From a virus (lineage: Duplodnaviria > Caudoviricetes): 64,000 nt of DNA. Under the pieces are notes generated by a model. The model worked only from the letters and a program-made list of their open reading frames with translations. It was not told the origin of the DNA and made no database searches. Positions within the stretch are counted from its first letter, which is position 1; every line of letters starts with the position of its first letter. The stretch covers positions 23,268-87,267 of the IMG/VR virus record IMGVR_UViG_3300028048_001915; one strand, written 5' to 3'. This document shows positions 3,182 through 64,000 of the stretch, piece after piece. Position numbers and translations under genes: made by a program.

Positions 3182-6100
3182 TTATGCAACTCCTTTTGGA
3201 TTTGGATCATATAAGTCAAGTGATTCTAAAGCAAGAATTAACATTTGTTTAGCTTCTTTTTGTGTCATGTTACGAGCATCAACAGGGATTGCACCTTCCT
3301 GAACAATAATAGTGGTGTTATTACCATTATTAGTTGGTGGTGCAGGACTTGCCATTAATCCCATTGATTGTAATTGTGATGGATTTAATGGTCCCATTGC
3401 AACATCTAATGATGGATTACCAAATCCATCAACAACTGATTTACCTGCAAGATATGCGGATGTGTTTAATGGACCATATGAATCAGTGATTGCTTGATTA
3501 GTATATCCCATTTCTGCGCTCATTGCACGATATATATCTCCAGGAGAACCACTGTTAATACCATTTTTAAATGCAGCCACTATTTCTGCAGCACCATTTT
3601 GAGCAACTGATTTAGCTGCATTTATACCATTTTGAACCGCAGATGTCATGAAACTCATTTCCGCATTCATTGCATCAGCTAATTTTAAAGTAGATTTGAA
3701 ACCATCAGTAACATTAGTACCTAATGATTGTCCACCACTTGAAGCTGCACCGCTTGCACTTGATATACCTGATGAAACACTGCTTTGGACAACACCTCCT
3801 AATGGTGATAATCCTGATTGAATACCACTAACAATTTGAGAACCAATACTCATTGCAGGAGCTGCAAATCCTCCAGCAGCACTTGCTAATGTTGTACGAA
3901 TAGTAGTTAATGCAGTATTAATACTATTAAGTAATCCATTAACATCACCAATACCAGCATTAGTCATTCCAGATAAATAATTCGCAACTTTGCTCACAGT
4001 TTCAACAGCTAATCTTACTCTTTCAGCAATATCTGGTGAAATAGTGACTCCACCAAATTGTGATAATTGTGTTCCTGCTTGTTTTAAATAACTTAAACCC
4101 ACGGAAACTCTTTGAATAAAACTAAGGTCAGGTATATTGGTTATTTGTATGCCTGCTAATTTACTGGCAACTTGATTAATTTCATTGATGGCTTTGTCAA
4201 TACTGCCTTGAATATCAGTTCCGCCGAATAATCCTCCTTGAATCCATCCAACGAAACCACCATCATAACTTTGTGCTACAGATTTAATTGAATCTAAACC
4301 TGATTTTAAACTACCTAATGCATTAGAAACATTTTGTATTTTACTTCCAATATCTTGTGGAACATCGGATATAGTCCAAGTGCTTAAAGCGGAAGCTGCT
4401 TTTTCAATATCTGTTTTCACATTAGTTAATGCAGTTTGAATATCTACTCCACCGAATAATCCTCCAAGTAGACTATCCCAGTTTTGACCATCACGTATAC
4501 TACGTAATGCACCAATCGCATCCCCTACAGATTTAAGGCTATTGCAAACATTTTGAATATTCTGTGCAACACTCTCAGGTAAAGGTGATAAACTAGAAAA
4601 TTCCTGTAATTTACTAGATGCTTTAATAATTTCATCTTTTGCTTGACCAATACCATCAGATATACTACTGAAATTTAATACTCCAGCAATCCAATTACTA
4701 ATACCGGTGTTAATATTAGTCCAGGTCATAGCACCCATAGCATTAGACACCGCACCAAGACTATCACTAATTGTTTTAAGATTTGTTGCAATAGATGGAT
4801 CAAGTTTAACATCACCGAAACTTTGAAGTTCTTTAGCAGCTTCTTTCAATGCACTACTTGCAGTTTTTAATGGTCCAGTTATACCGGTGAATAATGTAAT
4901 CATACTGTTAATGCCGACAAGTATGCTAACTCCGGTCATTGCTAGCATTGCAGCACCAATCCAAGCAAGACCAGTAGCTATCTGTTTGATTCCTTCAATA
5001 CTCCCTTTTAAATCGATACTGTCGAAGTTTAGGGATTGCATGAATTCACCTAATAATTTGATGAATAGCATTGCTTCTGCAGCTATTCCTGCTATTATTG
5101 GAATCATTATTGCTACTACTGCTGCTAATGCTAATGCAGGTACAATCATGGATGTGAATGCTGCACTTAATGATGTTGTTGCTGCTGCGGCTGCTTCTGT
5201 TCCAGCTGCTCCTGCTTCCATTGCTGGTGCTGCTGCACCCATTGCTCCAGCTGCTTCTGCAACTCCTTCAACTCCATCAACAACATCATCTATTTCTGAG
5301 ACTACTTCCGTCGCTCCACGAAGACCGGAGATTTTATCTTTTAATCCACCGAAAACATCAGTAAAACTGAATCCACTAATGCTTTGGTATAATGATTTGT
5401 TTAATCCGTTTAATTTGCCTTTTATATCAGGCATTTTAATATTTTTAATTGATGTTCCGAAACTAGATAATTTACCACTAATGGTACTGGCTACATCTCC
5501 TAATCCACCAAAACCTTTTTTCAATCCATTTTGTAATGTTTCACCAAAGCTGAAATTTTTAATGCTTGATGCTATTTTAGTGAACGGTGCTGTTATTTTT
5601 CCTTTAAAATCCAAATCTTTGATTGAGGAAAATGCCTCTGTTAATTGGGTTTTAAATCCAGAGAATTTATTTTTAATAGCACCTGTAAAAGTCATTTGTG
5701 AAGCTTCTTCAGCTAATTCCCATTCTTTAATTAAATCATCATCAAGAAAATGACTTCCTTCTTTAAGTGCTTCAGATAATTCTTCAGTTGATTTTTTACC
5801 AAAGATATTTTCAGGGTCAAAACCAAGATCACTCATTCTAGTTTTTGTAAGTCTCTCTGCGGTTTCAGCATTGATTTTATTGATTTCTTCAAAGACACCA
5901 TCTTTTTTTTCAAGTTCTTTAAGGTATTTTGCTAAATCTTTGTTTTGGTTTTTACTATCTTTTAGCATGTCTGCTGCGAACAATGCATCGGTACCAGCTT
6001 CAACAGCTTTTTCTCCTTTACCTGCACCTTTCGCAGCTTCGGCACCTGCAGCACCCATACCAGTAACATTAGCACCCATTTCTCCTGCATTACCTACAGT

Positions 6101-7090
6101 AGACATTGCATTACTCATACCTTTAACTGCATCAGTAGCATCATTAGCAGCTTCAGCAACATCACCAGCACCTTTAATCCAAGACCTTAACTGTTTAATA
6201 CCTGTACTAATATCCTCAAAACCACGAACAGCAGTACTGACATTAAATAAAGCACTGTTCATTACATCAATACCCTCGCCAACAAGGAGGATACTAGCAG
6301 TTAAATTACCTCCTAAAGCATTATCTAAATCCAAGAAACCTCTTTTAACATCTTTAATCACTGGTAAGAATTCATTACCAATTTTCTTACCACCACGACT
6401 AAAAGCTTTTTGGATTAAAGCATCAAGACCTTGGTTAGTTTCCATTAACTCTTTAGTAGAACCCATTACCTCAGTAACTGCCTCCATGAATCCACGAACA
6501 TCTTTCTCATCACCACTCCATTTACCAGTACGTTTTAACGCATCTTCAGATACACCGTACTGGTCTAATGCAGCGAAAGCACCTTTAATACCTTTAGACA
6601 AAGACATCATTGCAGTTTCAGCTAAAGCAGTACTACCAGTTTGAGCTAATACAGCCGCACCAAAGTTAGCCATATCATCAGTAATATCTTTAACTTCAGC
6701 ATCAGATGCACCAGTTGCGGCTTTAAATGCATTCAAAGCAGGGATTAAATCTTGCATTGAAGTTAAACTAGAATCAGTAACTTTATCAACAGTATCATAT
6801 AAATCTGCAGCAGCTTCTTTAGTACTAGTCATATTGTTAATAAGTACCTTGTTGGTTTCTGCTTTACTTGCATTACCAAATATAATATCAGAAGCAGATT
6901 TACCACTGTTAAGTGAACCTATTAAACCATCACTAACAGTACTTAAGTTAGCCATACCTGCAGTCATACTAGCTAATGCTGCTTGGGCGGATGAAGCCAT
7001 TGATTGAACATTATTATCTATTTGTCCAGTTACTGAACTAACTTCATCTTGTGCTCTGAATATAAGCATAAGCTCTTCCATACTCGCCAT
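3182..7090 (-). CDS. Tape measure protein
   Basis: 1302 aa, Ala/Gly/Ser-rich helical repeats and a hydrophobic segment, located after the tube and chaperone genes. Confidence 0.9.
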   Translation of the reverse strand: MASMEELMLIFRAQDEVSSVTGQIDNNVQSMASSAQAALASMTAGMANLSTVSDGLIGSLNSGKSASDIIFGNASKAETNKVLINNMTSTKEAAADLYDTVDKVTDSSLTSMQDLIPALNAFKAATGASDAEVKDITDDMANFGAAVLAQTGSTALAETAMMSLSKGIKGAFAALDQYGVSEDALKRTGKWSGDEKDVRGFMEAVTEVMGSTKELMETNQGLDALIQKAFSRGGKKIGNEFLPVIKDVKRGFLDLDNALGGNLTASILLVGEGIDVMNSALFNVSTAVRGFEDISTGIKQLRSWIKGAGDVAEAANDATDAVKGMSNAMSTVGNAGEMGANVTGMGAAGAEAAKGAGKGEKAVEAGTDALFAADMLKDSKNQNKDLAKYLKELEKKDGVFEEINKINAETAERLTKTRMSDLGFDPENIFGKKSTEELSEALKEGSHFLDDDLIKEWELAEEASQMTFTGAIKNKFSGFKTQLTEAFSSIKDLDFKGKITAPFTKIASSIKNFSFGETLQNGLKKGFGGLGDVASTISGKLSSFGTSIKNIKMPDIKGKLNGLNKSLYQSISGFSFTDVFGGLKDKISGLRGATEVVSEIDDVVDGVEGVAEAAGAMGAAAPAMEAGAAGTEAAAAATTSLSAAFTSMIVPALALAAVVAIMIPIIAGIAAEAMLFIKLLGEFMQSLNFDSIDLKGSIEGIKQIATGLAWIGAAMLAMTGVSILVGINSMITLFTGITGPLKTASSALKEAAKELQSFGDVKLDPSIATNLKTISDSLGAVSNAMGAMTWTNINTGISNWIAGVLNFSSISDGIGQAKDEIIKASSKLQEFSSLSPLPESVAQNIQNVCNSLKSVGDAIGALRSIRDGQNWDSLLGGLFGGVDIQTALTNVKTDIEKAASALSTWTISDVPQDIGSKIQNVSNALGSLKSGLDSIKSVAQSYDGGFVGWIQGGLFGGTDIQGSIDKAINEINQVASKLAGIQITNIPDLSFIQRVSVGLSYLKQAGTQLSQFGGVTISPDIAERVRLAVETVSKVANYLSGMTNAGIGDVNGLLNSINTALTTIRTTLASAAGGFAAPAMSIGSQIVSGIQSGLSPLGGVVQSSVSSGISSASGAASSGGQSLGTNVTDGFKSTLKLADAMNAEMSFMTSAVQNGINAAKSVAQNGAAEIVAAFKNGINSGSPGDIYRAMSAEMGYTNQAITDSYGPLNTSAYLAGKSVVDGFGNPSLDVAMGPLNPSQLQSMGLMASPAPPTNNGNNTTIIVQEGAIPVDARNMTQKEAKQMLILALESLDLYDPNPKGVA

Positions 7091-13229: not shown

Positions 13230-14381
13230 TTATAATAATGATTTAATCAAGTCTTCTTTGGTTTGTTTAGCAACTAACATTTCAGCTGCTTCACGACTTG
13301 TGAATTGGTCTTTTTTAGAATCATTATCTTGGGTTTTCACAGTATCTTCATCATATTGGAACTCAGGGTCACGTTTATCAGATAAATCTTTAAATAATTT
13401 ACCCATTTGTTCTGATACTGCTTTGTCAACAGTTGATTTAACTGTTTCAGTTACATCTACTTCTGGAATCATTTCTTTGATTTCAGATTTCATAGATTCT
13501 AATTCAGAATGGAATAATCCTTTAATATCATCTAATGCGATAGATTTTTCTTCCTCAGGTTTTTCCTCTTCTTCATCTACTTCTGCTTCAGGAGTTTCTT
13601 CAACTTCTTCCTCAGGTTTTTCCTCTTCTTCTTCAGATGCAGATTTAATAGCATCTTTAACAATTTTTTCTAATTGTTTAGAAACTGATTGAACAGTATC
13701 ATTTTTAATTTCCTCTTTCATAGGAATTAATGCTTCATTGATTAAATCCTTAACATCTTCTTTAGTTAAAGTTTCTATTTCATTTTCGGCCATATTATCA
13801 ACCTCATTTTTCATAATTGTATAACATGCACCAGTCAAACAAGTAGATTTAACTAATCCTTTGCTTGTAGTGATGGTTCCATAGGTGTCCCAGTTAGCAG
13901 GCATACCTGTTAAGGAGATTTCACGTAAGGTGATGTCTTTAATTTCCCACCCACCATCTTCAAGTTGGGTGTGTTCAGTTACTCTCCCTCCAATAGACAA
14001 TCCGAGTTTAACTCCAATATCTAACATGTCTCTGATTTCATTGGCATATTTCGGCAATATTTTAGCTTTAATTCTTAAAGAATAAGCATCAGTATCTATT
14101 ACCCCAGTGATTGCTCCAATGATACCATCGAACAATCCATACCAATGATCACCATGCAAGTTTAAACCTGCTTGCAATTGTCTTTTCATTGACTCAATTG
14201 CAGATGGAGTTACTATGTCATCTTGAAGGTCTTTATTTGTTGTTGAAGCTATTCCTTCTATTGTTAATGAACCGTCCTCATTGAGAGTATAACTTTTTGT
14301 GGTGTCCGGATAGATTTGAGGACGTGCATAGAGTTGGAATTGCTTATCTAAGACTTCAGTTGTCATAATATTTGTTTCCAC
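13230..14381 (-). CDS. Prohead maturation protease fused to an acidic scaffold domain
   Basis: IEGIASTTNKDLQDDIV, LHGDH (His), GLSIGG (Ser) and LREISLTGMPAN motifs; Glu-rich C-terminal half. Confidence 0.85.
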   Translation of the reverse strand: METNIMTTEVLDKQFQLYARPQIYPDTTKSYTLNEDGSLTIEGIASTTNKDLQDDIVTPSAIESMKRQLQAGLNLHGDHWYGLFDGIIGAITGVIDTDAYSLRIKAKILPKYANEIRDMLDIGVKLGLSIGGRVTEHTQLEDGGWEIKDITLREISLTGMPANWDTYGTITTSKGLVKSTCLTGACYTIMKNEVDNMAENEIETLTKEDVKDLINEALIPMKEEIKNDTVQSVSKQLEKIVKDAIKSASEEEEEKPEEEVEETPEAEVDEEEEKPEEEKSIALDDIKGLFHSELESMKSEIKEMIPEVDVTETVKSTVDKAVSEQMGKLFKDLSDKRDPEFQYDEDTVKTQDNDSKKDQFTSREAAEMLVAKQTKEDLIKSLL

Positions 14382-14420: not shown

Positions 14421-14485
14421 AGTGGGTTTCAGGGTTTGAACCTGTATTTTTTTTAAAAAATGAAGATTAATTTTTTTTAACCCAC
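14421..14485 (-). ncRNA. tRNA-like element 1 (acceptor stem plus T-arm, no D or anticodon arm)
   Basis: Minus strand reads GTGGGTT ...A/U-rich 35 nt... ACAGG TTCAAAC CCTGA AACCCAC T: a perfect 7-bp acceptor stem and a canonical T-loop. Confidence 0.6.
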
Positions 14486-14511: not shown

Positions 14512-14566
14512 TCTTATTTTTAATTTTAGGGGAGGACCACCTCTCCCTAAAATATTAAAAATAAGA
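14512..14566. other. Long hairpin in the intergenic region
   Basis: TCTTATTTTTAAT-TTTAGGG-GAGG [ACCA] CCTC-T-CCCTAAA-AT-ATTAAAAATAAGA, about 24 bp of pairing. Confidence 0.6.
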
Positions 14567-14829
14567 AAAATTTTGTTTTAAAACACATACATAGAGAGAT
14601 ATTTTAAAAAATGAAAAAATCGCACAAAAAAAAATTATTCATTTTTTTTATAGTGTTTCTTCTTTTATTTTTTTTTTTATTTTAGCAAAAAAATATGGTA
14701 AACAATGAACAGGGTTTTTTTTTAGAGATAATAAAAGAACCTGTCTTTTGTTTTTGGTTTTAGTTAATGTTTTTTTTTTGGCATTAATAAAGGAAGTGAA
14801 AAAAATGCATTAACCTATTTTTAAACGGT

Positions 14830-14872
14830 AGGTGGGATTTAGGAATCGAACCTAAACAAAGATGTTCCCACC
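14830..14872 (-). ncRNA. tRNA-like element 2 (43-nt minihelix)
   Basis: Minus strand reads GGTGGGA ACATCTTTG TTTAGG TTCGATT CCTAAA TCCCACC T: perfect 7-bp and 6-bp stems with a canonical TTCGA T-loop. Confidence 0.7.
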
Positions 14873-15095
14873 ATTAGTGACAAATAATAAAATATTTTTT
14901 TTTGATAAGGGAGAAAAAAAAGAAAGGAGGAAAAAATATAATTTAATAAAAATTGAAAAAAATAATTAATGGCTGAGCTATGTGTAAAAGAATAAGTTTT
15001 TCAAATTTTTTTTATTATTTTCTTTTCTTTTTTAAAACTCCCAAAATATGGTGACATAATATGAAAACTAAATATTTTTATAAAAAAAATTAAAA

Positions 15096-15419
15096 TTAAG
15101 TTGTCATAACTGAATCTTCAGTAATAATATTTAAAACTTCAAATATATCTTCAAAATAAGCTCCAAAAGTATATCTTTCACCATCAAAAGTGATAAGGAC
15201 ATTTCTAAGTTCATCCTTAAAAGTCCATTTATGAACATTATCTTCTAAAGAATATTCTGCATCTTGCCAATAATCATCTATCATATTATATGATAACCAT
15301 TCAGGGCATGTGATGTTTTCTTTATCAAATAATTCTTTAACAAACATAAAATTATTCCTCATTAAATTTTTTAGTGAAATATTCATAATGTTTTGGATAT
15401 AATTGTTTATATTCTTCAA
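15096..15419 (-). CDS. Small protein downstream of the MuF toxin-like gene (candidate immunity protein; true start probably at the internal MFVKELF)
   Basis: Abuts the MuF stop codon; small and acidic. Confidence 0.4.
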   Translation of the reverse strand: MKNINNYIQNIMNISLKNLMRNNFMFVKELFDKENITCPEWLSYNMIDDYWQDAEYSLEDNVHKWTFKDELRNVLITFDGERYTFGAYFEDIFEVLNIITEDSVMTT

Positions 15420-17190
15420 AGTTAATATCTTTTGTTATTTTGCCTTCATCAGCATAATATTGGATTGTAATCTTTTTCTTTTGTTCAGTAGGATTTGCTA
15501 ACATATAACTAATATATCCACCATGTTCAGCATAAGATTCTTCTCTTGCAGTATTTGCATACCATGTGAAACCAGGTAAATCATCTTTATTTTCTGATTT
15601 CAAATGAATCTTAGAATATTCATCAGTATAGCAATTTCTAATATGATTATTATCATCCCACTCTTTTTTTGTCTGATCCATACTATGAGTGAATTCATGA
15701 TGAATAGTTTTTTTCCAGGAAGTTATCATATCCTCTTCTTGATTCCACAAGAAAGCATATCTTCCTTTACCTCCACCTTTGAAGTATTTAGGATTAATCA
15801 CAATCCTATGATTGAAATCTTCTTGTTCTGGAACAAAACGTTTACTTGCCATTTGCGAGTATGAATTATATCCTGCAGTTGTTTGGTCAAAAGAATCATA
15901 ACCAGATTTAGTTGGCCTATGAATAATACCTTGACTAGTATTTTTAAACCATATTTCACGAGTTTCATTTCTTAAAACTAGAGGTACTTTGAATACTTCA
16001 TGTATAATCTCGTTTGGAGTAGCTATTCCTTTTTTTAAATATGATTTAACCGCACCTTCTTCAAAACGTAACACAAAGTCACGTCCATCATCAAAGGTTT
16101 CTACAAATTTATGGTATTTTTTACCATCATAATCATAAGTTTCTAATCCTTGATAATCAATACCATGGAATTTAGCTAATTCATCGAAAGTGAAATTGTT
16201 TAATTGTTCTAATGATAAGCTTTCATTTAATATTACTGATGGTGTATCTTGTGGTGGAGTATTAGTGAATACTTGTTCCCAATCATTGATTGGTGTTAAG
16301 TTAACAGTGAATGGAACATTCTCTGATGGCTTAACCTTACTCTCCCAAACAGACAAGTAAGTGCAACGGCAATGAGGATGAAACGGTGGATAAGCACCAC
16401 CTTTAATCAAATCACGAATATTATGAACTCTCTCATCACCACGATTCTCAAAGATAATCTTATCATCTTTATTAAACTCATAAGCATATCGTAAACATAA
16501 AGTACAAACATTATCATCTTCAGCAGTTAACAATTTAACTTCTGTATAACCCTCATTAACATAAGACTGTAATATACCAGTATTTTGTATACGGCTTATT
16601 TCAGTACGAGCTATCATTGTAGCTCTTTGTCTTGGAGTGAATGTACTTCCAGGTAATTGAGTAACACCTAACTCTAATAATTTAGGTGCAAGACTTAAAG
16701 GATTCTCGCCTTCAATAGCTGCACGAGTCAATCTATTCTTGATGGCTCCTCTTAAATCATCATTTAATCTTTGAATCAGACCATAATTATAATTTCGTGC
16801 AAATGCAAAAGCTAAACGGTCAGTGTCAGTGTATCTTAAATGTTCGGCAATGTTACTATATCCTTTGGCTTTACCATAATCATATATTTCTTGGAGTAAT
16901 CCATCAATAGTTTCATATTTACCTGATAATATGTTATCCCATTCTTCATCCAATGACTCCCATATTTCTTGTTGGTAATATGCTTCGTTGAAGAAGAATT
17001 CTTTAGCTTCAGGACTATCAATCCATTTTACACTGGCTTGTAATGTATCATCTATTTGTTGTGAGATTAATCTGTAATATTTCATTAGTTGGATATTATC
17101 TTTTAGACTTTTTTCCGTGAACTCTTCCTCGAGTTCTAGGTCTTCAATTAGTAATTGGTTGGTTAATATCCTATCTTCTGATGAAATCAT
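15352..17190 (-). CDS. MuF/SPP1 gp7-like minor head protein with a C-terminal zinc metallopeptidase-like domain
   Basis: RATMIARTEISR, CTLC and PPFHPHCRC MuF motifs; the extension carries HHEFTH (HExxH) and a downstream EESYAE. Confidence 0.8.
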   Translation of the reverse strand: MISSEDRILTNQLLIEDLELEEEFTEKSLKDNIQLMKYYRLISQQIDDTLQASVKWIDSPEAKEFFFNEAYYQQEIWESLDEEWDNILSGKYETIDGLLQEIYDYGKAKGYSNIAEHLRYTDTDRLAFAFARNYNYGLIQRLNDDLRGAIKNRLTRAAIEGENPLSLAPKLLELGVTQLPGSTFTPRQRATMIARTEISRIQNTGILQSYVNEGYTEVKLLTAEDDNVCTLCLRYAYEFNKDDKIIFENRGDERVHNIRDLIKGGAYPPFHPHCRCTYLSVWESKVKPSENVPFTVNLTPINDWEQVFTNTPPQDTPSVILNESLSLEQLNNFTFDELAKFHGIDYQGLETYDYDGKKYHKFVETFDDGRDFVLRFEEGAVKSYLKKGIATPNEIIHEVFKVPLVLRNETREIWFKNTSQGIIHRPTKSGYDSFDQTTAGYNSYSQMASKRFVPEQEDFNHRIVINPKYFKGGGKGRYAFLWNQEEDMITSWKKTIHHEFTHSMDQTKKEWDDNNHIRNCYTDEYSKIHLKSENKDDLPGFTWYANTAREESYAEHGGYISYMLANPTEQKKKITIQYYADEGKITKDINFEEYKQLYPKHYEYFTKKFNEE

Positions 17191-20694: not shown

Positions 20695-21135
20695 TTAATG
20701 CACTAATTGGAAATATATATTCACAGCAATAGTTATTACAGTGAATATTGCACCTAAAATTAGCATTTGATTATTAAAACGTCTTTGGTCATCTTTCTCT
20801 TTATCTTTAATGCTATCTTTCAAGTTTTGATAATCTGTTTCAATTGTTTTTAATCGGAGTTCTAATTCAACATCTCCTTTATTTGAATCTACTTTGAAAT
20901 CATTGAAACCTTGAACTAAGATATCTAATTTTTTATCCATTTCATTCATCTTAGTATTCAATTCATCAATCCTCTTTTCCTTATAATCTGCACGAGCTTC
21001 TAACTCAGCAGTTTTTCGACTAATGCCTTGAATTTGTTCTTCATGTATACAGTTATGTTCAGTATGCATCTTCTTCACCCACTGCATCACTGGTATTAAT
21101 ACTATCATATCCTGCAGCAGGATCAACTGTTTCAT
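20695..21135 (-). CDS. Coiled-coil protein with a C-terminal transmembrane helix (lysis/membrane associated)
   Basis: Heptad-rich body and a C-terminal LILGAIFTVITIAVNIYF segment. Confidence 0.5.
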   Translation of the reverse strand: MKQLILLQDMIVLIPVMQWVKKMHTEHNCIHEEQIQGISRKTAELEARADYKEKRIDELNTKMNEMDKKLDILVQGFNDFKVDSNKGDVELELRLKTIETDYQNLKDSIKDKEKDDQRRFNNQMLILGAIFTVITIAVNIYFQLVH

Positions 21136-21367
21136 TTAACTTCGCTTCATAATTTTCAATTGCCATTTGTTCAGCCACATCAACACGTGTGTTTTCTGTT
21201 GATTGAACTATAATGTAACCTGCAATCCATACTATGAATGGTGCTAAGTATGCGAATTGTTCGGGGAGTATTTGTGCTAATGCATCTTTCCCTAAATATG
21301 ATATTGCTCCTGCGATGAATACTATTGCATTCGCTGCTTTACTTTTATATTTATATGTTTGTGTCAT
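21059..21367 (-). CDS. Holin-like small membrane protein
   Basis: Two N-terminal hydrophobic helices and an acidic tail. Confidence 0.45.
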   Translation of the reverse strand: MTQTYKYKSKAANAIVFIAGAISYLGKDALAQILPEQFAYLAPFIVWIAGYIIVQSTENTRVDVAEQMAIENYEAKLNETVDPAAGYDSINTSDAVGEEDAY

Positions 21368-21402: not shown

Positions 21403-21580
21403 TGGTGATGTCAGGGTTTGCACCTGATTATATTTGAAAAAAGAGAGAGAAAAAAAATTTTAATCTAAAATTTATAAGTCTACAGGAAAATTAATTTTTT
21501 GAATGAAATCTAAAAAAAGATATTGTTACCCATTATTTTTTTAACACCTTTCACCAACCCTCTTTTTTTTATACATCACC
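21403..21580 (-). ncRNA. tRNA-like element 3 (acceptor stem plus T-arm enclosing a ~150-nt insert)
   Basis: 5' GGTGATG (21580-21574) pairs with 3' CATCACC (21410-21404) plus discriminator A. T-arm is TCAGG TGCAAAC CCTGA. Inner AAAAAAGAGGG can pair with CTCTCTTTTTT. Confidence 0.65.
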
Positions 21581-51359: not shown

Positions 51360-51448
51360 AGGTATGTATCTAAGATTTTGGCCAAAGGAGACAGACTTAG
51401 AATCTGTTGCATATAGTTGCTACGTGGGTTCAAATCCCACCATACCTA
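51360..51448 (+). tRNA. tRNA-Leu (anticodon TAG), no encoded CCA
   Basis: Acceptor AGGTATG/CATACCT, anticodon arm ACAGA-CTTAGAA-TCTGT, long variable arm, T-arm GTGGG-TTCAAAT-CCCAC, discriminator A. Confidence 0.92.
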
Positions 51449-54028
51449 CTCTAAAAAAAAGATAAATGGAGGATAATACAATGAGTGCTAAACAGTACAT
51501 GCGTGGGCATGAAATATATTATGATGATGAAAAGAAAGCATGGATTTATACCGAAAATGGTGAGCGGGTTTATGATAATGAATGTATTGAATGTGTTAAA
51601 TGTGATAAACCCCCGATTGATGATGTTGATTTTTGTTTATATGCTTTACATGATTGTGATTTTATTAATGCTGCTTGTTGTGGTCATGGTGTTAAACCAG
51701 GTTATATTAAGTTGAAAGATGGTAGGGTATTTCGTGAGGAGGAAGTGTGAATTATGAATAATGAAACTTCTAAAAAAATAGTGGAAAATATGAATAGTTT
51801 TGCTAATTCAATAAAACCACTATCTGAAAAATTAGGAAATTTTAAAAAAGTCCTGGAAAACAATTACCTCATAATCCTAAAAAATTACATAACTAAATTA
51901 TTCCCTTATGCTAATGTGGAAGTGAAAATCATAAATGGCATTGTTAAAATCATTTCAGATAAAGAGTTACATGACATAAATTTAGTTACAATGCAATATT
52001 TGATTGGTATGCGTATTTTAAATTATACAAAGTATCAGACATGTGTAATATATAATTTAGGTCTGAAAAAAGAAGATGAACTAGAAAAAATGTATTTTAT
52101 AGCAAGTACTAAATTTCCACCGTTTGATTTATGTTTAAAGTCTAGTTGTGATAATTGTGCTTTTTCAGAATATCATACAGGATATGATCCAAGAATAAGG
52201 AGGATGATATGAATGAGTTATATGGTACATGAAGGCGGTTGTAGAATAAGTATTGTATATGAATATAGGGATCCTGTTGATAATACTTTCACAAAAAAGG
52301 TTAATGGTGTTGCTGATTATATTGTGTCTAGTCATAAACAAGCAAAAGAATTTAAAATGATACTCCAACAATCTGAAATCATTGTTGAGGAATTGAACAA
52401 ATTAAATGAAGAAATAATATCTTTAAAAAAAGATTTGGCAGTAGCTCAAGCATCAGCATTATTCGATACTGTAACATCAAAAAGAGTTATTGAATTACAA
52501 AAAGAGTTAAAAGAAAAGGATTATGAGGTTAACCATCTTGTTAATAGTATTTATCGTAAAACAGACGAGTTTTATGAAGAAAAAAAGAAGTTGCTTCTTG
52601 AAAATAATGCATTGCGAAAGAAGAATAAACAATCCACTGCTATAGTGGAAGCTGTTAGGAAAACAGAATTAAGTAAAATTCCTACAGATGAATTAGCTAG
52701 GGAGTTATATTCTAGGATGGAGAATTTGGATAAATTGGAGAAGAGTCATAATAAATTGTTAAGTCAACATAAGAAAGCTGCAGTGATGATAGCTGAATTA
52801 AAAAAACAATAACAGATGGGAGGGATATTTTATGGATGAAAGATTAGATTTATGGGATAGTGAAGAATTATACAAGAAATGCAAACAATTTTGTGATACA
52901 TGGGAATTTGGTAAAGAATGTAATAATAGGAAAGGAATGTATGAGTTTCTTGAAGGTATTGAAATGGATTTGTATAATCAAAAGAATGATATAATTAATG
53001 AATTAGGTATTACTGATTGTCCATTTCATAATAGAGATGATTAAACTATGGCAAATGATTTTAGTCATTTATCATGTGAGTATTATAATGATGGTGTTTG
53101 TTTAAATTATTGGATGGTTTATCGGAATGCCTGGAGTATTGATAAATATAATTATTGTTTGAGGGATTTGGAATGAGTTTAAAAAAAGTCAGATTACTTA
53201 AAGGAGTAGATTATGTTTACTGTTTCCTTAAAGAGAAAGTTATTAAGGAAGAAGAATGTGATTATTATGAGCATAATCTCGAATGCGATAAAAATGATGA
53301 TGTTTATGGTAGAACACATAGTAAAGGTACTCGTGCAGGTTATGGATATGCTACTGCTGGGTCTACCAGTGTATTAAATTCTTGTAAATATTGTTTAAAA
53401 AAAGCAGAACAATATGAAGAGTTTTATTTACCCCAAGAAGTTACTAATAAAAAAAGAAAGAAATTATTTGGATTATTCTGATGGTGAGGAGTTGTAAATG
53501 AGTAAAAGAAAATCATTCTATTATAATGATTGGAAATATAAAATCCGGTGGAATGAACGAGCAACACCTTTTATGATTAAACATATGAATTTAGGAAATC
53601 TACAAGGGAAATATCTTCGTGATAGAGGTTTTGGAACTTTAATTAAAATTAGAATGGTAAGGATGTACCAGTTAAAAAGGAAATTTAGGAGTAAAAAATG
53701 TCTCTGGTGGTGATTTGGAATGAGTGAAAAAGAGAAGTTAAATAATTTACTATCTGCACGAATGGAGTTTGGAAAAGCAAAACAAGAATATATAAATTGT
53801 ATTTCTGATTTTCTTGGAGATGCAGTAAATTATATACACATTAAATTTCATGGAAATAAAATGTATGTAACTTTTGAGTCCTTTTGTTCTTTTAATGATA
53901 AGTATTTATTGAAATTTTGTAATGAATTTGGTTTGTTAGCTCCATCAATAGAGTTTAAAGAGTTAAATGAACATCTACCTGTGTATAAGTGGGAATTTAT
54001 TAAACTATTGGATTAAAGGTGATTCTGA

Positions 54029-63037: not shown

Positions 63038-63421
63038 ATGCTAAAGCAAATTTGTAAATGGACTATCCAATATTAGGAAAATAACTGTTCATAACCTCGA
63101 TAAATGGAGGATTAAAAATAATAGGAGTATTTTAATATAATAAAAGAAGAAAGATTAATTTGATAATATAAATGCATTTCGATTTTCACGTTCTAGATAT
63201 TAAAAATATCGTAATAGTCTCTCTATATTTTATGAATTATTTACTCCATTTTTTGCTATAATTAAAAAAAAAGGGGAATATATAAAGGAAAAGTTTTCAT
63301 TGTTTAAACATCAATTTACAATTTTTCATCAATTAATCGCTATTTAGTTGGTTGCGGGAACACTTTTTTCTTCTTTTATTTTATTCCTATTTTTTTATCC
63401 CCCATTTTTTGTTTTAATTTC

Positions 63422-64000
63422 TTATCGATATTTATCTAATATATCATCATCACTTTTATTCTCTAAAGCAGCTATTCTTTCCATTATTTGAGATTGTTGT
63501 TTAGTCAAAGTATTTTGCAGTTCTTCGTTTTTATTTTCTAATTCGTTAATTTTTTCTTCCATTTCCCGCCTTACATCTGAAGTGTATACCTTTGTTTCAG
63601 TATTTTCAAGACTTAAATCAGGTATTGCTGCCATGTATGCTTCATACACATCATTATCATCAATTTTAATATAACTAGGGTCTGTTTTCATAGGACTTAC
63701 ATGCCCTTCAATCAAAGAACATATTCTTAAATCACCACAGTTTCGACTTATCATAGTTTCAAAGTATTTCCTGCAAGCATGCGCATGAAATTTAGGGATT
63801 TTCTCTATTGCTTTTTGTTTATCTTCTTTAGATATTTCCCCATTTTTTATTTTTTCATCAATTATTTTAATGTGATGTTCTCTTAATTTTTTATTTTTTT
63901 CAGTAAATGCTTCCGATACAGATATTTGTTGTAATTGACCTTTAAAAAACTTTTTTTTACTTGAAAATAATGAATCTTCTTTTGTTAATTCTAAATTCAT
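63422..64000 (-). CDS. Tyrosine recombinase/integrase, C-terminal part (runs off the window)
   Basis: FHAHACRKYF (HxxR), IEGH and downstream Y; C-terminal coiled coil. Confidence 0.8.
   Translation of the reverse strand: MNLELTKEDSLFSSKKKFFKGQLQQISVSEAFTEKNKKLREHHIKIIDEKIKNGEISKEDKQKAIEKIPKFHAHACRKYFETMISRNCGDLRICSLIEGHVSPMKTDPSYIKIDDNDVYEAYMAAIPDLSLENTETKVYTSDVRREMEEKINELENKNEELQNTLTKQQSQIMERIAALENKSDDDILDKYR

Follow-up and report, generated by a model that had tools for sequence, protein, structure and literature searches.

The head-gene locus and its tRNA-like elements

The stretch of DNA analyzed here (the window, 64,000 nucleotides) belongs to a viral record of 87,267 bp. Its closest GenBank relative is Caudoviricetes sp. 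vir080, whose host is listed as Methanobacteriales, and relatives of its proteins were found in Methanobrevibacter assemblies. On the strength of these GenBank and protein relatives, the archaeal origin assumed in the initial annotation is borne out, and the virus is, judging by sequence, an 87-kb tailed virus of the gut and rumen methanogen Methanobrevibacter. The genes for terminase, portal and a MuF-like protein, a small ORF, an AT-rich gap of 714 bp, the prohead protease/scaffold gene and the major capsid protein gene follow one another on the same strand. In the gap, on the strand of the genes, lies a 43-base RNA element (window positions 14872 to 14830) made of the acceptor stem and T-arm of a tRNA only. 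We call this element A, and the family to which it belongs A-type. The initial annotation described three such top-half tRNA mimics, all on the strand of the late genes, and we recovered the other two at 14421-14485 and 21403-21580. The features to which we refer below are as follows.

13230..14366, minus strand: prohead protease/scaffold gene (Pfam Peptidase_S78) with a Shine-Dalgarno-like motif ahead of it; the downstream gene that the B-type mimic would serve
14421..14485, minus strand: B-type mimic, with a 7-bp acceptor stem, a 34-nt A/U linker, the T-arm loop TTCAAAC and discriminator U
14523..14553, minus strand: conserved hairpin with a UGGU loop in the spacer between A and B (-17.1 kcal/mol, z = -3.37)
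14799..14805, minus strand: T7 run 24 nt downstream of the discriminator of A, a candidate archaeal oligo-T terminator at which transcription may end
14830..14872, minus strand: A-type minihelix, the main element, with a 7-bp acceptor stem, a 9-nt linker, a 6-bp T-stem, the loop TTCGATT and discriminator U
14873..14874, minus strand: conserved A-U dinucleotide (U at -1) directly 5' of the acceptor stem, a candidate RNase P cleavage context or initiator
15096-15419, minus strand: small ORF after the MuF-like gene, which with that gene would form the upstream transcription segment ending at A
15352..17190, minus strand: MuF-like head morphogenesis gene (Pfam Phage_Mu_F)
21403..21580, minus strand: third mimic, with a 7-bp acceptor stem around an insert of ~140 nt, the T-arm loop TGCAAAC and discriminator A
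51360-51449, plus strand: tRNA-Leu, anticodon TAG, with a long variable arm (Rfam 50.1 bits), the sole canonical tRNA of the window

The gene order is kept in relatives: portal, MuF (at times with extra small genes), A, a spacer of 350-450 nt, B, protease and capsid gene. It holds even where identity has fallen to ~35% for MuF and ~50% for the protease. Throughout these relatives A shares the strand of the genes and begins 1-45 nt past the upstream stop codon, often without room for a promoter of its own. The exact protease product was found on one 12-kb contig, which reads through the region. The MuF-like protein of the window has an extra C-terminal region with a weak match to Peptidase_Mx1 (zinc-metallopeptidase), below the cut-off; the MuF proteins of the relatives are shorter.

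Both ends of the linear record (window ~63400-64000 plus genome 1-950) lie within a tyrosine-integrase-like gene (weak PF00589) and carry a direct repeat of ~130 nt, with 44 identical residues at both ends. Given this gene across the ends and the terminal repeat, the genome is probably circular or terminally redundant and the virus probably temperate. No NTP_transf_2 or RtcB enzyme was found to be encoded by the virus.

Fold and covariation of the A-type minihelix

Read back from the minus strand, A has the sequence and architecture that the initial annotation gave it. The 5' strand GGTGGGA (14872-14866) pairs with TCCCACC (14837-14831) in an acceptor stem of 7 bp, a linker of 9 nt leads into a T-arm with a canonical T-loop, the discriminator is T at 14830 (U in RNA), and D and anticodon arms are absent. 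The 13 perfect pairs counted at that stage are all present in the window virus, but the thirteenth, the sixth pair of the T-stem, is specific to this virus, and its relatives have the 7 plus 5 pairs that are standard in tRNA. The MFE fold of A is exactly the acceptor/T-arm structure, at -16.1 kcal/mol (z = -3.09), and a single one of 200 shuffles folded equally well. Folds of this general kind are common in DNA of 27-33% G+C, where a loose scan for an acceptor stem plus T-arm gave 0.67 matches per simulated genome. A strict scan, requiring all pairs to be Watson-Crick, a loop-closing G-C, at least four G-C pairs in the acceptor stem and a TTYRA loop, found a match equal to A in none of 300 simulated 87-kb genomes. 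A chance origin of A is excluded by this strict simulation.

That tRNA scanners would pass over such an element had been expected, and they do. Run on the window, ARAGORN did not call A and reported the tRNA-Leu (51364-51449) as the sole tRNA, and in Rfam A had no tRNA match even at E-values up to 10, the tRNA-Leu alone passing the gathering score. Set beside the canonical tRNA family (RF00005), A has no four-arm cloverleaf, with a mere 9 nt between its acceptor and T stems. What it does have, as do all 11 A-type members, is an acceptor stem stacked on a T-arm with T54, T55, C56, R57, A58 and the pair G53-C61. Its fold is that of a t-element, in being a tRNA-like acceptor/T-arm structure that does not decode.

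Further A-type members were found with a covariance model (R2, 76 bits on A) together with a structure-aware pattern scan of IMG/VR. They come from other Methanobrevibacter viruses or proviruses (L008, L164, L166, L167), from IMG/VR gut and rumen viruses (L185, L186, L194), from a second paralogue in the rumen virus L197 and from host contigs. An IMG/VR pattern made of the 5' strand and linker returned only chance matches in coding sequence, and a second pattern returned only a known relative. The stems of this family are conserved through compensatory change. Across 11 distinct sequences, 98.5% of cells are paired and seven of the 12 pairs have changed on both sides (22 such cells), and four pairs have done so within the three nearest relatives alone. 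None of 500 shuffles reached as high a value, and sliding the partner strand by one column reduced pairing to ~60%. The initial annotation had named full tRNAs at the homologous loci, or stems without conservation, as the observations that would speak against it; the relatives instead carry the same armless minihelix. When the window is aligned with its 81%-identical relative (L002), A, the B-type mimic and the spacer hairpin stand out as conserved islands in a gap that has otherwise diverged.

Conservation extends to positions outside the stems. Over A-type and B-type elements together, all 25 sequences have T54, T55 and A58 as well as the pair G53-C61. C56 is invariant in A-type and not in B-type, where it is usually U, as expected if the D-loop partner is absent. 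Upstream of the acceptor stem, positions -2/-1 read A/T in every one of the 10 A-type sequences that extend so far, and all 14 B-type rows have T at -1. The discriminator may be U, A, C or G among the members, and CCA is nowhere encoded. The A-type linker is 8-10 nt long throughout and shares a motif near AAUCUUKG, which persists where the stems differ, including in the GC-rich paralogue of L197 with its entirely different acceptor stem. In this rumen virus, two A-type minihelices (2334-2373 and 2214-2258) lie ~80 nt apart (120 nt start to start), with unrelated acceptor stems, one of them GC-rich, and linkers that share a motif of the TTCTTTG / CTTTC type.

Could such a structure be a decaying tRNA pseudogene, or a DNA-level palindrome such as a protein operator, with no function as RNA? 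Its look is tRNA-derived, and inverted repeats can covary if the specificity of a dimeric protein shifts. We nevertheless judge this explanation very improbable. The armless form and its linker are common to 11 diverged members in which seven pairs have changed on both sides and almost none is broken, although the flanking intergenic DNA has diverged; within the wider mimic family, acceptor halves pair across linkers of anywhere from 8 to ~215 nt; and the T-loop is asymmetric, with the tRNA invariants in place. Cells that depart from Watson-Crick pairing are G-U (3), A-A (7), U-U (1) and G-A (1), never A-C. Such a spectrum fits RNA made from this strand better than a DNA palindrome. The best explanation is that A is a functional RNA, presumably transcribed, that mimics the coaxial acceptor-stem/T-arm half of a tRNA.

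Three other features of A were considered. A small ORF of 11 codons from the ATG at 14874-14872 was rejected, as L002 and L008 preserve neither its frame nor its length. We likewise set aside a pairing of the linker with a conserved motif before the protease start, since hand alignment gave no more than 4 bp. The acceptor stem of a host tRNA-Asp (L170) is similar, which makes descent from this tRNA conceivable, but no relation to it could be traced in the linker of A.

Sister mimics, spacer hairpin and host copies

The B-type mimic scores 23 bits against the Rfam tRNA model, below threshold, and 67.7 bits with our own model R1. Its family comprises 14 sequences, with 95.8% of cells paired and five pairs changed on both sides. 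In the window virus it lies 54 nt upstream of the prohead protease ATG, and in all relatives it lies 29-54 nt before the protease start codon with a Shine-Dalgarno-like motif in between. The third mimic, a weak match to R1 (22.8 bits), lies 35 nt upstream of the first late ORF (21059-21367) and heads the late operon. Its homologue in a 77-kb relative (L159) shows a compensatory change in the T-stem. In relatives A follows stop codons, and its sisters precede start codons.

Between A and B, the spacer hairpin has a UGGU loop closed by a G-C pair, an upper stem of 3-4 bp and a bulged A, and in its 5' half it is similar to an extended Shine-Dalgarno sequence. In L002, L008, L161 and L165 the lower stem covaries. 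The hairpin is constantly found downstream of the A-type minihelix, in viruses (L002 ~3801-3830, L008 ~3818-3840) as well as at a host locus (L180 6093-6133).

This host locus makes the A-type family not strictly viral. In three closely related Methanobrevibacter species, an A-type copy lies 1 nt past the stop codon of a TPR-repeat gene (L180, G050:C77, 6027-6066, and its counterparts in G053 and G061); a T7 run and a UGGU-loop hairpin of the same kind come after it. The neighbors are clearly chromosomal: thymidylate kinase, CofH, ComDE-like genes and the primase small subunit, with coenzyme M and F420 biosynthesis represented. Because of these neighbors, we conclude that the module is common to host and virus, and it may have been transferred in either direction. 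No IMG/VR virus with the host-locus variant was found.

A second candidate host copy has a different origin. In genome G048 (L181, G048:C66, 8437-9554), a 397-nt block that runs from A across the spacer into the first few bases of B shares 93% identity with the virus of G022 and sits beside cas1/cas2-like genes. It is followed by a fragment 90% identical to the N-terminus of a viral helicase and by other viral scraps, among them sequence that follows a truncated protease elsewhere in the same genome. Given the adjoining helicase and post-protease fragments, we rejected this copy as an independent host gene and regard it as part of a scrambled provirus remnant.

Copies in host DNA raise the question of an attachment site, or of a relic of integration into a tRNA-like host gene, in which the likeness to tRNA would be inherited from the target. 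In its favor are the host-chromosome copy adjoining the TPR gene, the 93% identity of the 397-nt block between virus and host-like contig, and the integrase-like gene in the virus. That gene is, however, 38 kb off, across the ends of the record, and A has neither an adjacent integrase nor a second flanking copy; genomes bearing a provirus have one A-type copy each and hence no attL/attR pair. An attP needs just the 3' part of a tRNA, yet the 5' strand of A covaries with its 3' strand. The host-like contig is a scrambled provirus remnant, and IMG/VR yielded no virus with the host-locus variant. We consider this origin highly unlikely.

A candidate processing mark on the late transcript

RNase P, tRNase Z and the CCA-adding enzyme recognize a tRNA by its acceptor-stem/T-arm half, and the parts lost from A are the decoding parts. 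Among the roles put forward in the initial annotation, the genomic context favors processing by RNase P and RNase Z: in relatives A is just past stop codons and its sisters are just before start codons. Putative cleavage would also agree with the archaeal RNase P RNA in the host genomes, the conserved U(-1) and the lack of an encoded CCA. The variable discriminator would argue against a specific aminoacylation role for A, which shows neither the conserved discriminator identity nor the 3' CCA of an aminoacylatable tRNA-like structure.

The reading that we favor, and to which we give about even credence, is that A, in the manner of a t-element, marks the viral head-gene message for cleavage by host RNase P and tRNase Z. 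In this model, transcription would read through the region and the three mimics would punctuate the late (head-gene) transcript of the Methanobrevibacter tailed virus. A would close the terminase-portal-MuF segment at its 3' end, while B and the third mimic would create the 5' ends of downstream messages, those of the protease-capsid genes and of the first late gene, respectively. Host RNase P may cut at the conserved U(-1)/G(+1) junction and host tRNase Z after the discriminator. These cuts would release the minihelix together with a spacer RNA of ~340 nt, and would separate mRNA segments needing very different protein yields, for example those for portal and capsid.

Several observations sit less easily with a processing mark. 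A TATA-like box lies ~25-33 nt upstream of some copies (L185, possibly the window), and many are followed by a T-run, so that these could be independent small genes. The linker motif is kept where stems differ, for which a mere cleavage mark has no need. Finally, cutting a copy that begins 1 nt past a stop codon leaves an mRNA without a 3' UTR.

Alternatively, A may be a small non-coding RNA gene in its own right, expressed from an archaeal promoter of its own and ending in an oligo-T terminator. The mature minihelix of ~40 nt, possibly CCA-tailed, would then act in trans through its 8-10-nt linker, perhaps by binding or titrating a tRNA-binding protein, maybe a host defence factor. Because of the conserved linker and the TATA-like boxes before some copies, we keep this alternative in play, although on balance we find it unlikely. 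The linker is shared by members with differing stems, the GC-rich paralogue of L197 included; C56 is invariant in A-type but not in B-type; several copies have a T6-T7 run behind them (at a distance of 4-27 nt in L002, L008, L161 and L167), and copies like that of L185 have the TATA-like box; and the A-T-G context at the start fits a pyrimidine/purine initiator. Yet the copies of the host TPR locus, L167 and L161-163 start 1-14 nt past a coding stop with no TATA-like box at -26, and no partner protein or target is known for the putative role in trans. A more specific version, in which a mature CCA-tailed RNA of 40 nt acts through the linker and the elbow-less top half, for instance as a decoy or sponge for a host factor that binds tRNA acceptor ends (a defence nuclease or transferase, an elongation factor or the CCA enzyme), strikes us as distinctly unlikely.

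tRNA-like 3' ends shield plant viral RNAs, and in a similar manner A might remain on the upstream mRNA as a 3'-terminal stabilizer. Transcription would stop at the T-run, tRNase Z would trim to the discriminator, CCA would be added, and the tRNA-like end would protect the mRNA of the MuF segment from 3' exonucleases. The placement of A, just past stop codons and just ahead of T-runs, agrees with this, and as CCA is not encoded tRNase Z would not be blocked. A perfect acceptor/T-arm stack with a conserved U(-1) should, however, be a substrate for RNase P, which would cut A off, and the B-type and third mimics lie 5' of genes, not 3'. We therefore think a stabilizer improbable.

If the favored reading is right and host RNase P and tRNase Z do cleave the mimics, then tRNA punctuation serves tailed archaeal viruses to split a late operon into separately stable messages, a logic known from mitochondria and not from archaeal viruses. 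This would explain how head genes with very different protein yields are expressed from one strand, and it would offer a compact natural part of ~40 nt for RNA processing in methanogens, where genetic tools are scarce. If the element instead acts in trans, it would be a natural "top-half tRNA" with a role of its own, common to methanogens and their viruses. The family in any case presents a natural acceptor/T-arm "top half" without the decoding half, which bears on ideas about the origin of tRNA. Annotation pipelines miss these elements entirely.

In the searchable literature, t-elements are described in organelles and in Haloferax, and we found none for archaeal viruses or Methanobrevibacter. 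The initial annotation, which knew of no description of such a family in archaeal viruses, agrees with what we found, and the use of a top-half tRNA mimic as a processing mark is likewise not described for these viruses there. t-elements of plant mitochondria were reportedly treated by Hanic-Joyce and Gray in 1990. There, mRNA ends arise where RNase P and RNase Z cleave these elements (Forner et al. 2007, PMC1920247). They lie inside longer transcripts, adjoining the 5' or 3' ends of mRNAs, and gain non-encoded C/A at their 3' end (PMC1920247). The likeness to A is in the conserved T-arm motif and acceptor stem and in the want of a working cloverleaf. The plant elements differ in being degenerate organellar cloverleaves of ~70 nt, whereas A is 43 nt long, has no D and anticodon arms, has a conserved linker of 8-10 nt and is encoded by an archaeal DNA virus, where its cleavage is a prediction.

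A precedent from an archaeon is the t-element upstream of the 5S rRNA in Haloferax volcanii, where, by the account that PMC4326828 gives of Hoelzle et al. 2008 and 2012, processing by tRNase Z makes the 5' end of the downstream RNA. According to the same account, both RNase P and tRNase Z act on this t-element in vivo when it is put next to another RNA, so that it works as a portable signal (PMC4326828). It belongs to a haloarchaeal host chromosome, beside rRNA, and has no sequence relationship to A; unlike A, it is, as described there, not part of a family of three per genome and does not flank protein-coding virus genes.

There are parallels beyond t-elements. The tRNA-like domain of tmRNA has an acceptor stem and T-arm with an insert at the place of the anticodon arm, and is in this closer to the B-type and third mimics than to A. 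It is bacterial, with the G3-U70 alanine identity pair and a tag reading frame, whereas in A the pair 3-70 is U-A and there is no tag frame; ARAGORN found no tmRNA in the window, and the combination of G3-U70 with an internal tag frame is absent. Synthetic acceptor/T-arm minihelices are model substrates for RNase P, tRNase Z, the CCA-adding enzyme and some aminoacyl-tRNA synthetases. They share the architecture of A, a coaxial stack of 12 bp closed by a T-loop, but are laboratory constructs forming a continuous hairpin, whereas A is natural and conserved and has a 9-nt bulge between its stems. The tRNA-like 3' ends of MALAT1 (mascRNA) and MEN-beta determine where these long transcripts are cut and finished, by recruiting RNase P, RNase Z and the CCA-adding enzyme; they are eukaryotic, nuclear and full cloverleaves without homology to A.

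Related elements occur in two further viruses. The published virus vir080 (L015, BK063677) has an acceptor/T-arm element with an insert of ~104 nt at 5281-5415, in the gap before the packaging genes (R1, 26 bits), and no B-type element precedes its protease gene. In L184 (G022:C108), the small genes ahead of the terminase have a B-like element upstream of them, at 6770-6878 on the minus strand (R1, 30.8 bits), in a position that corresponds to that of the third mimic of the window.
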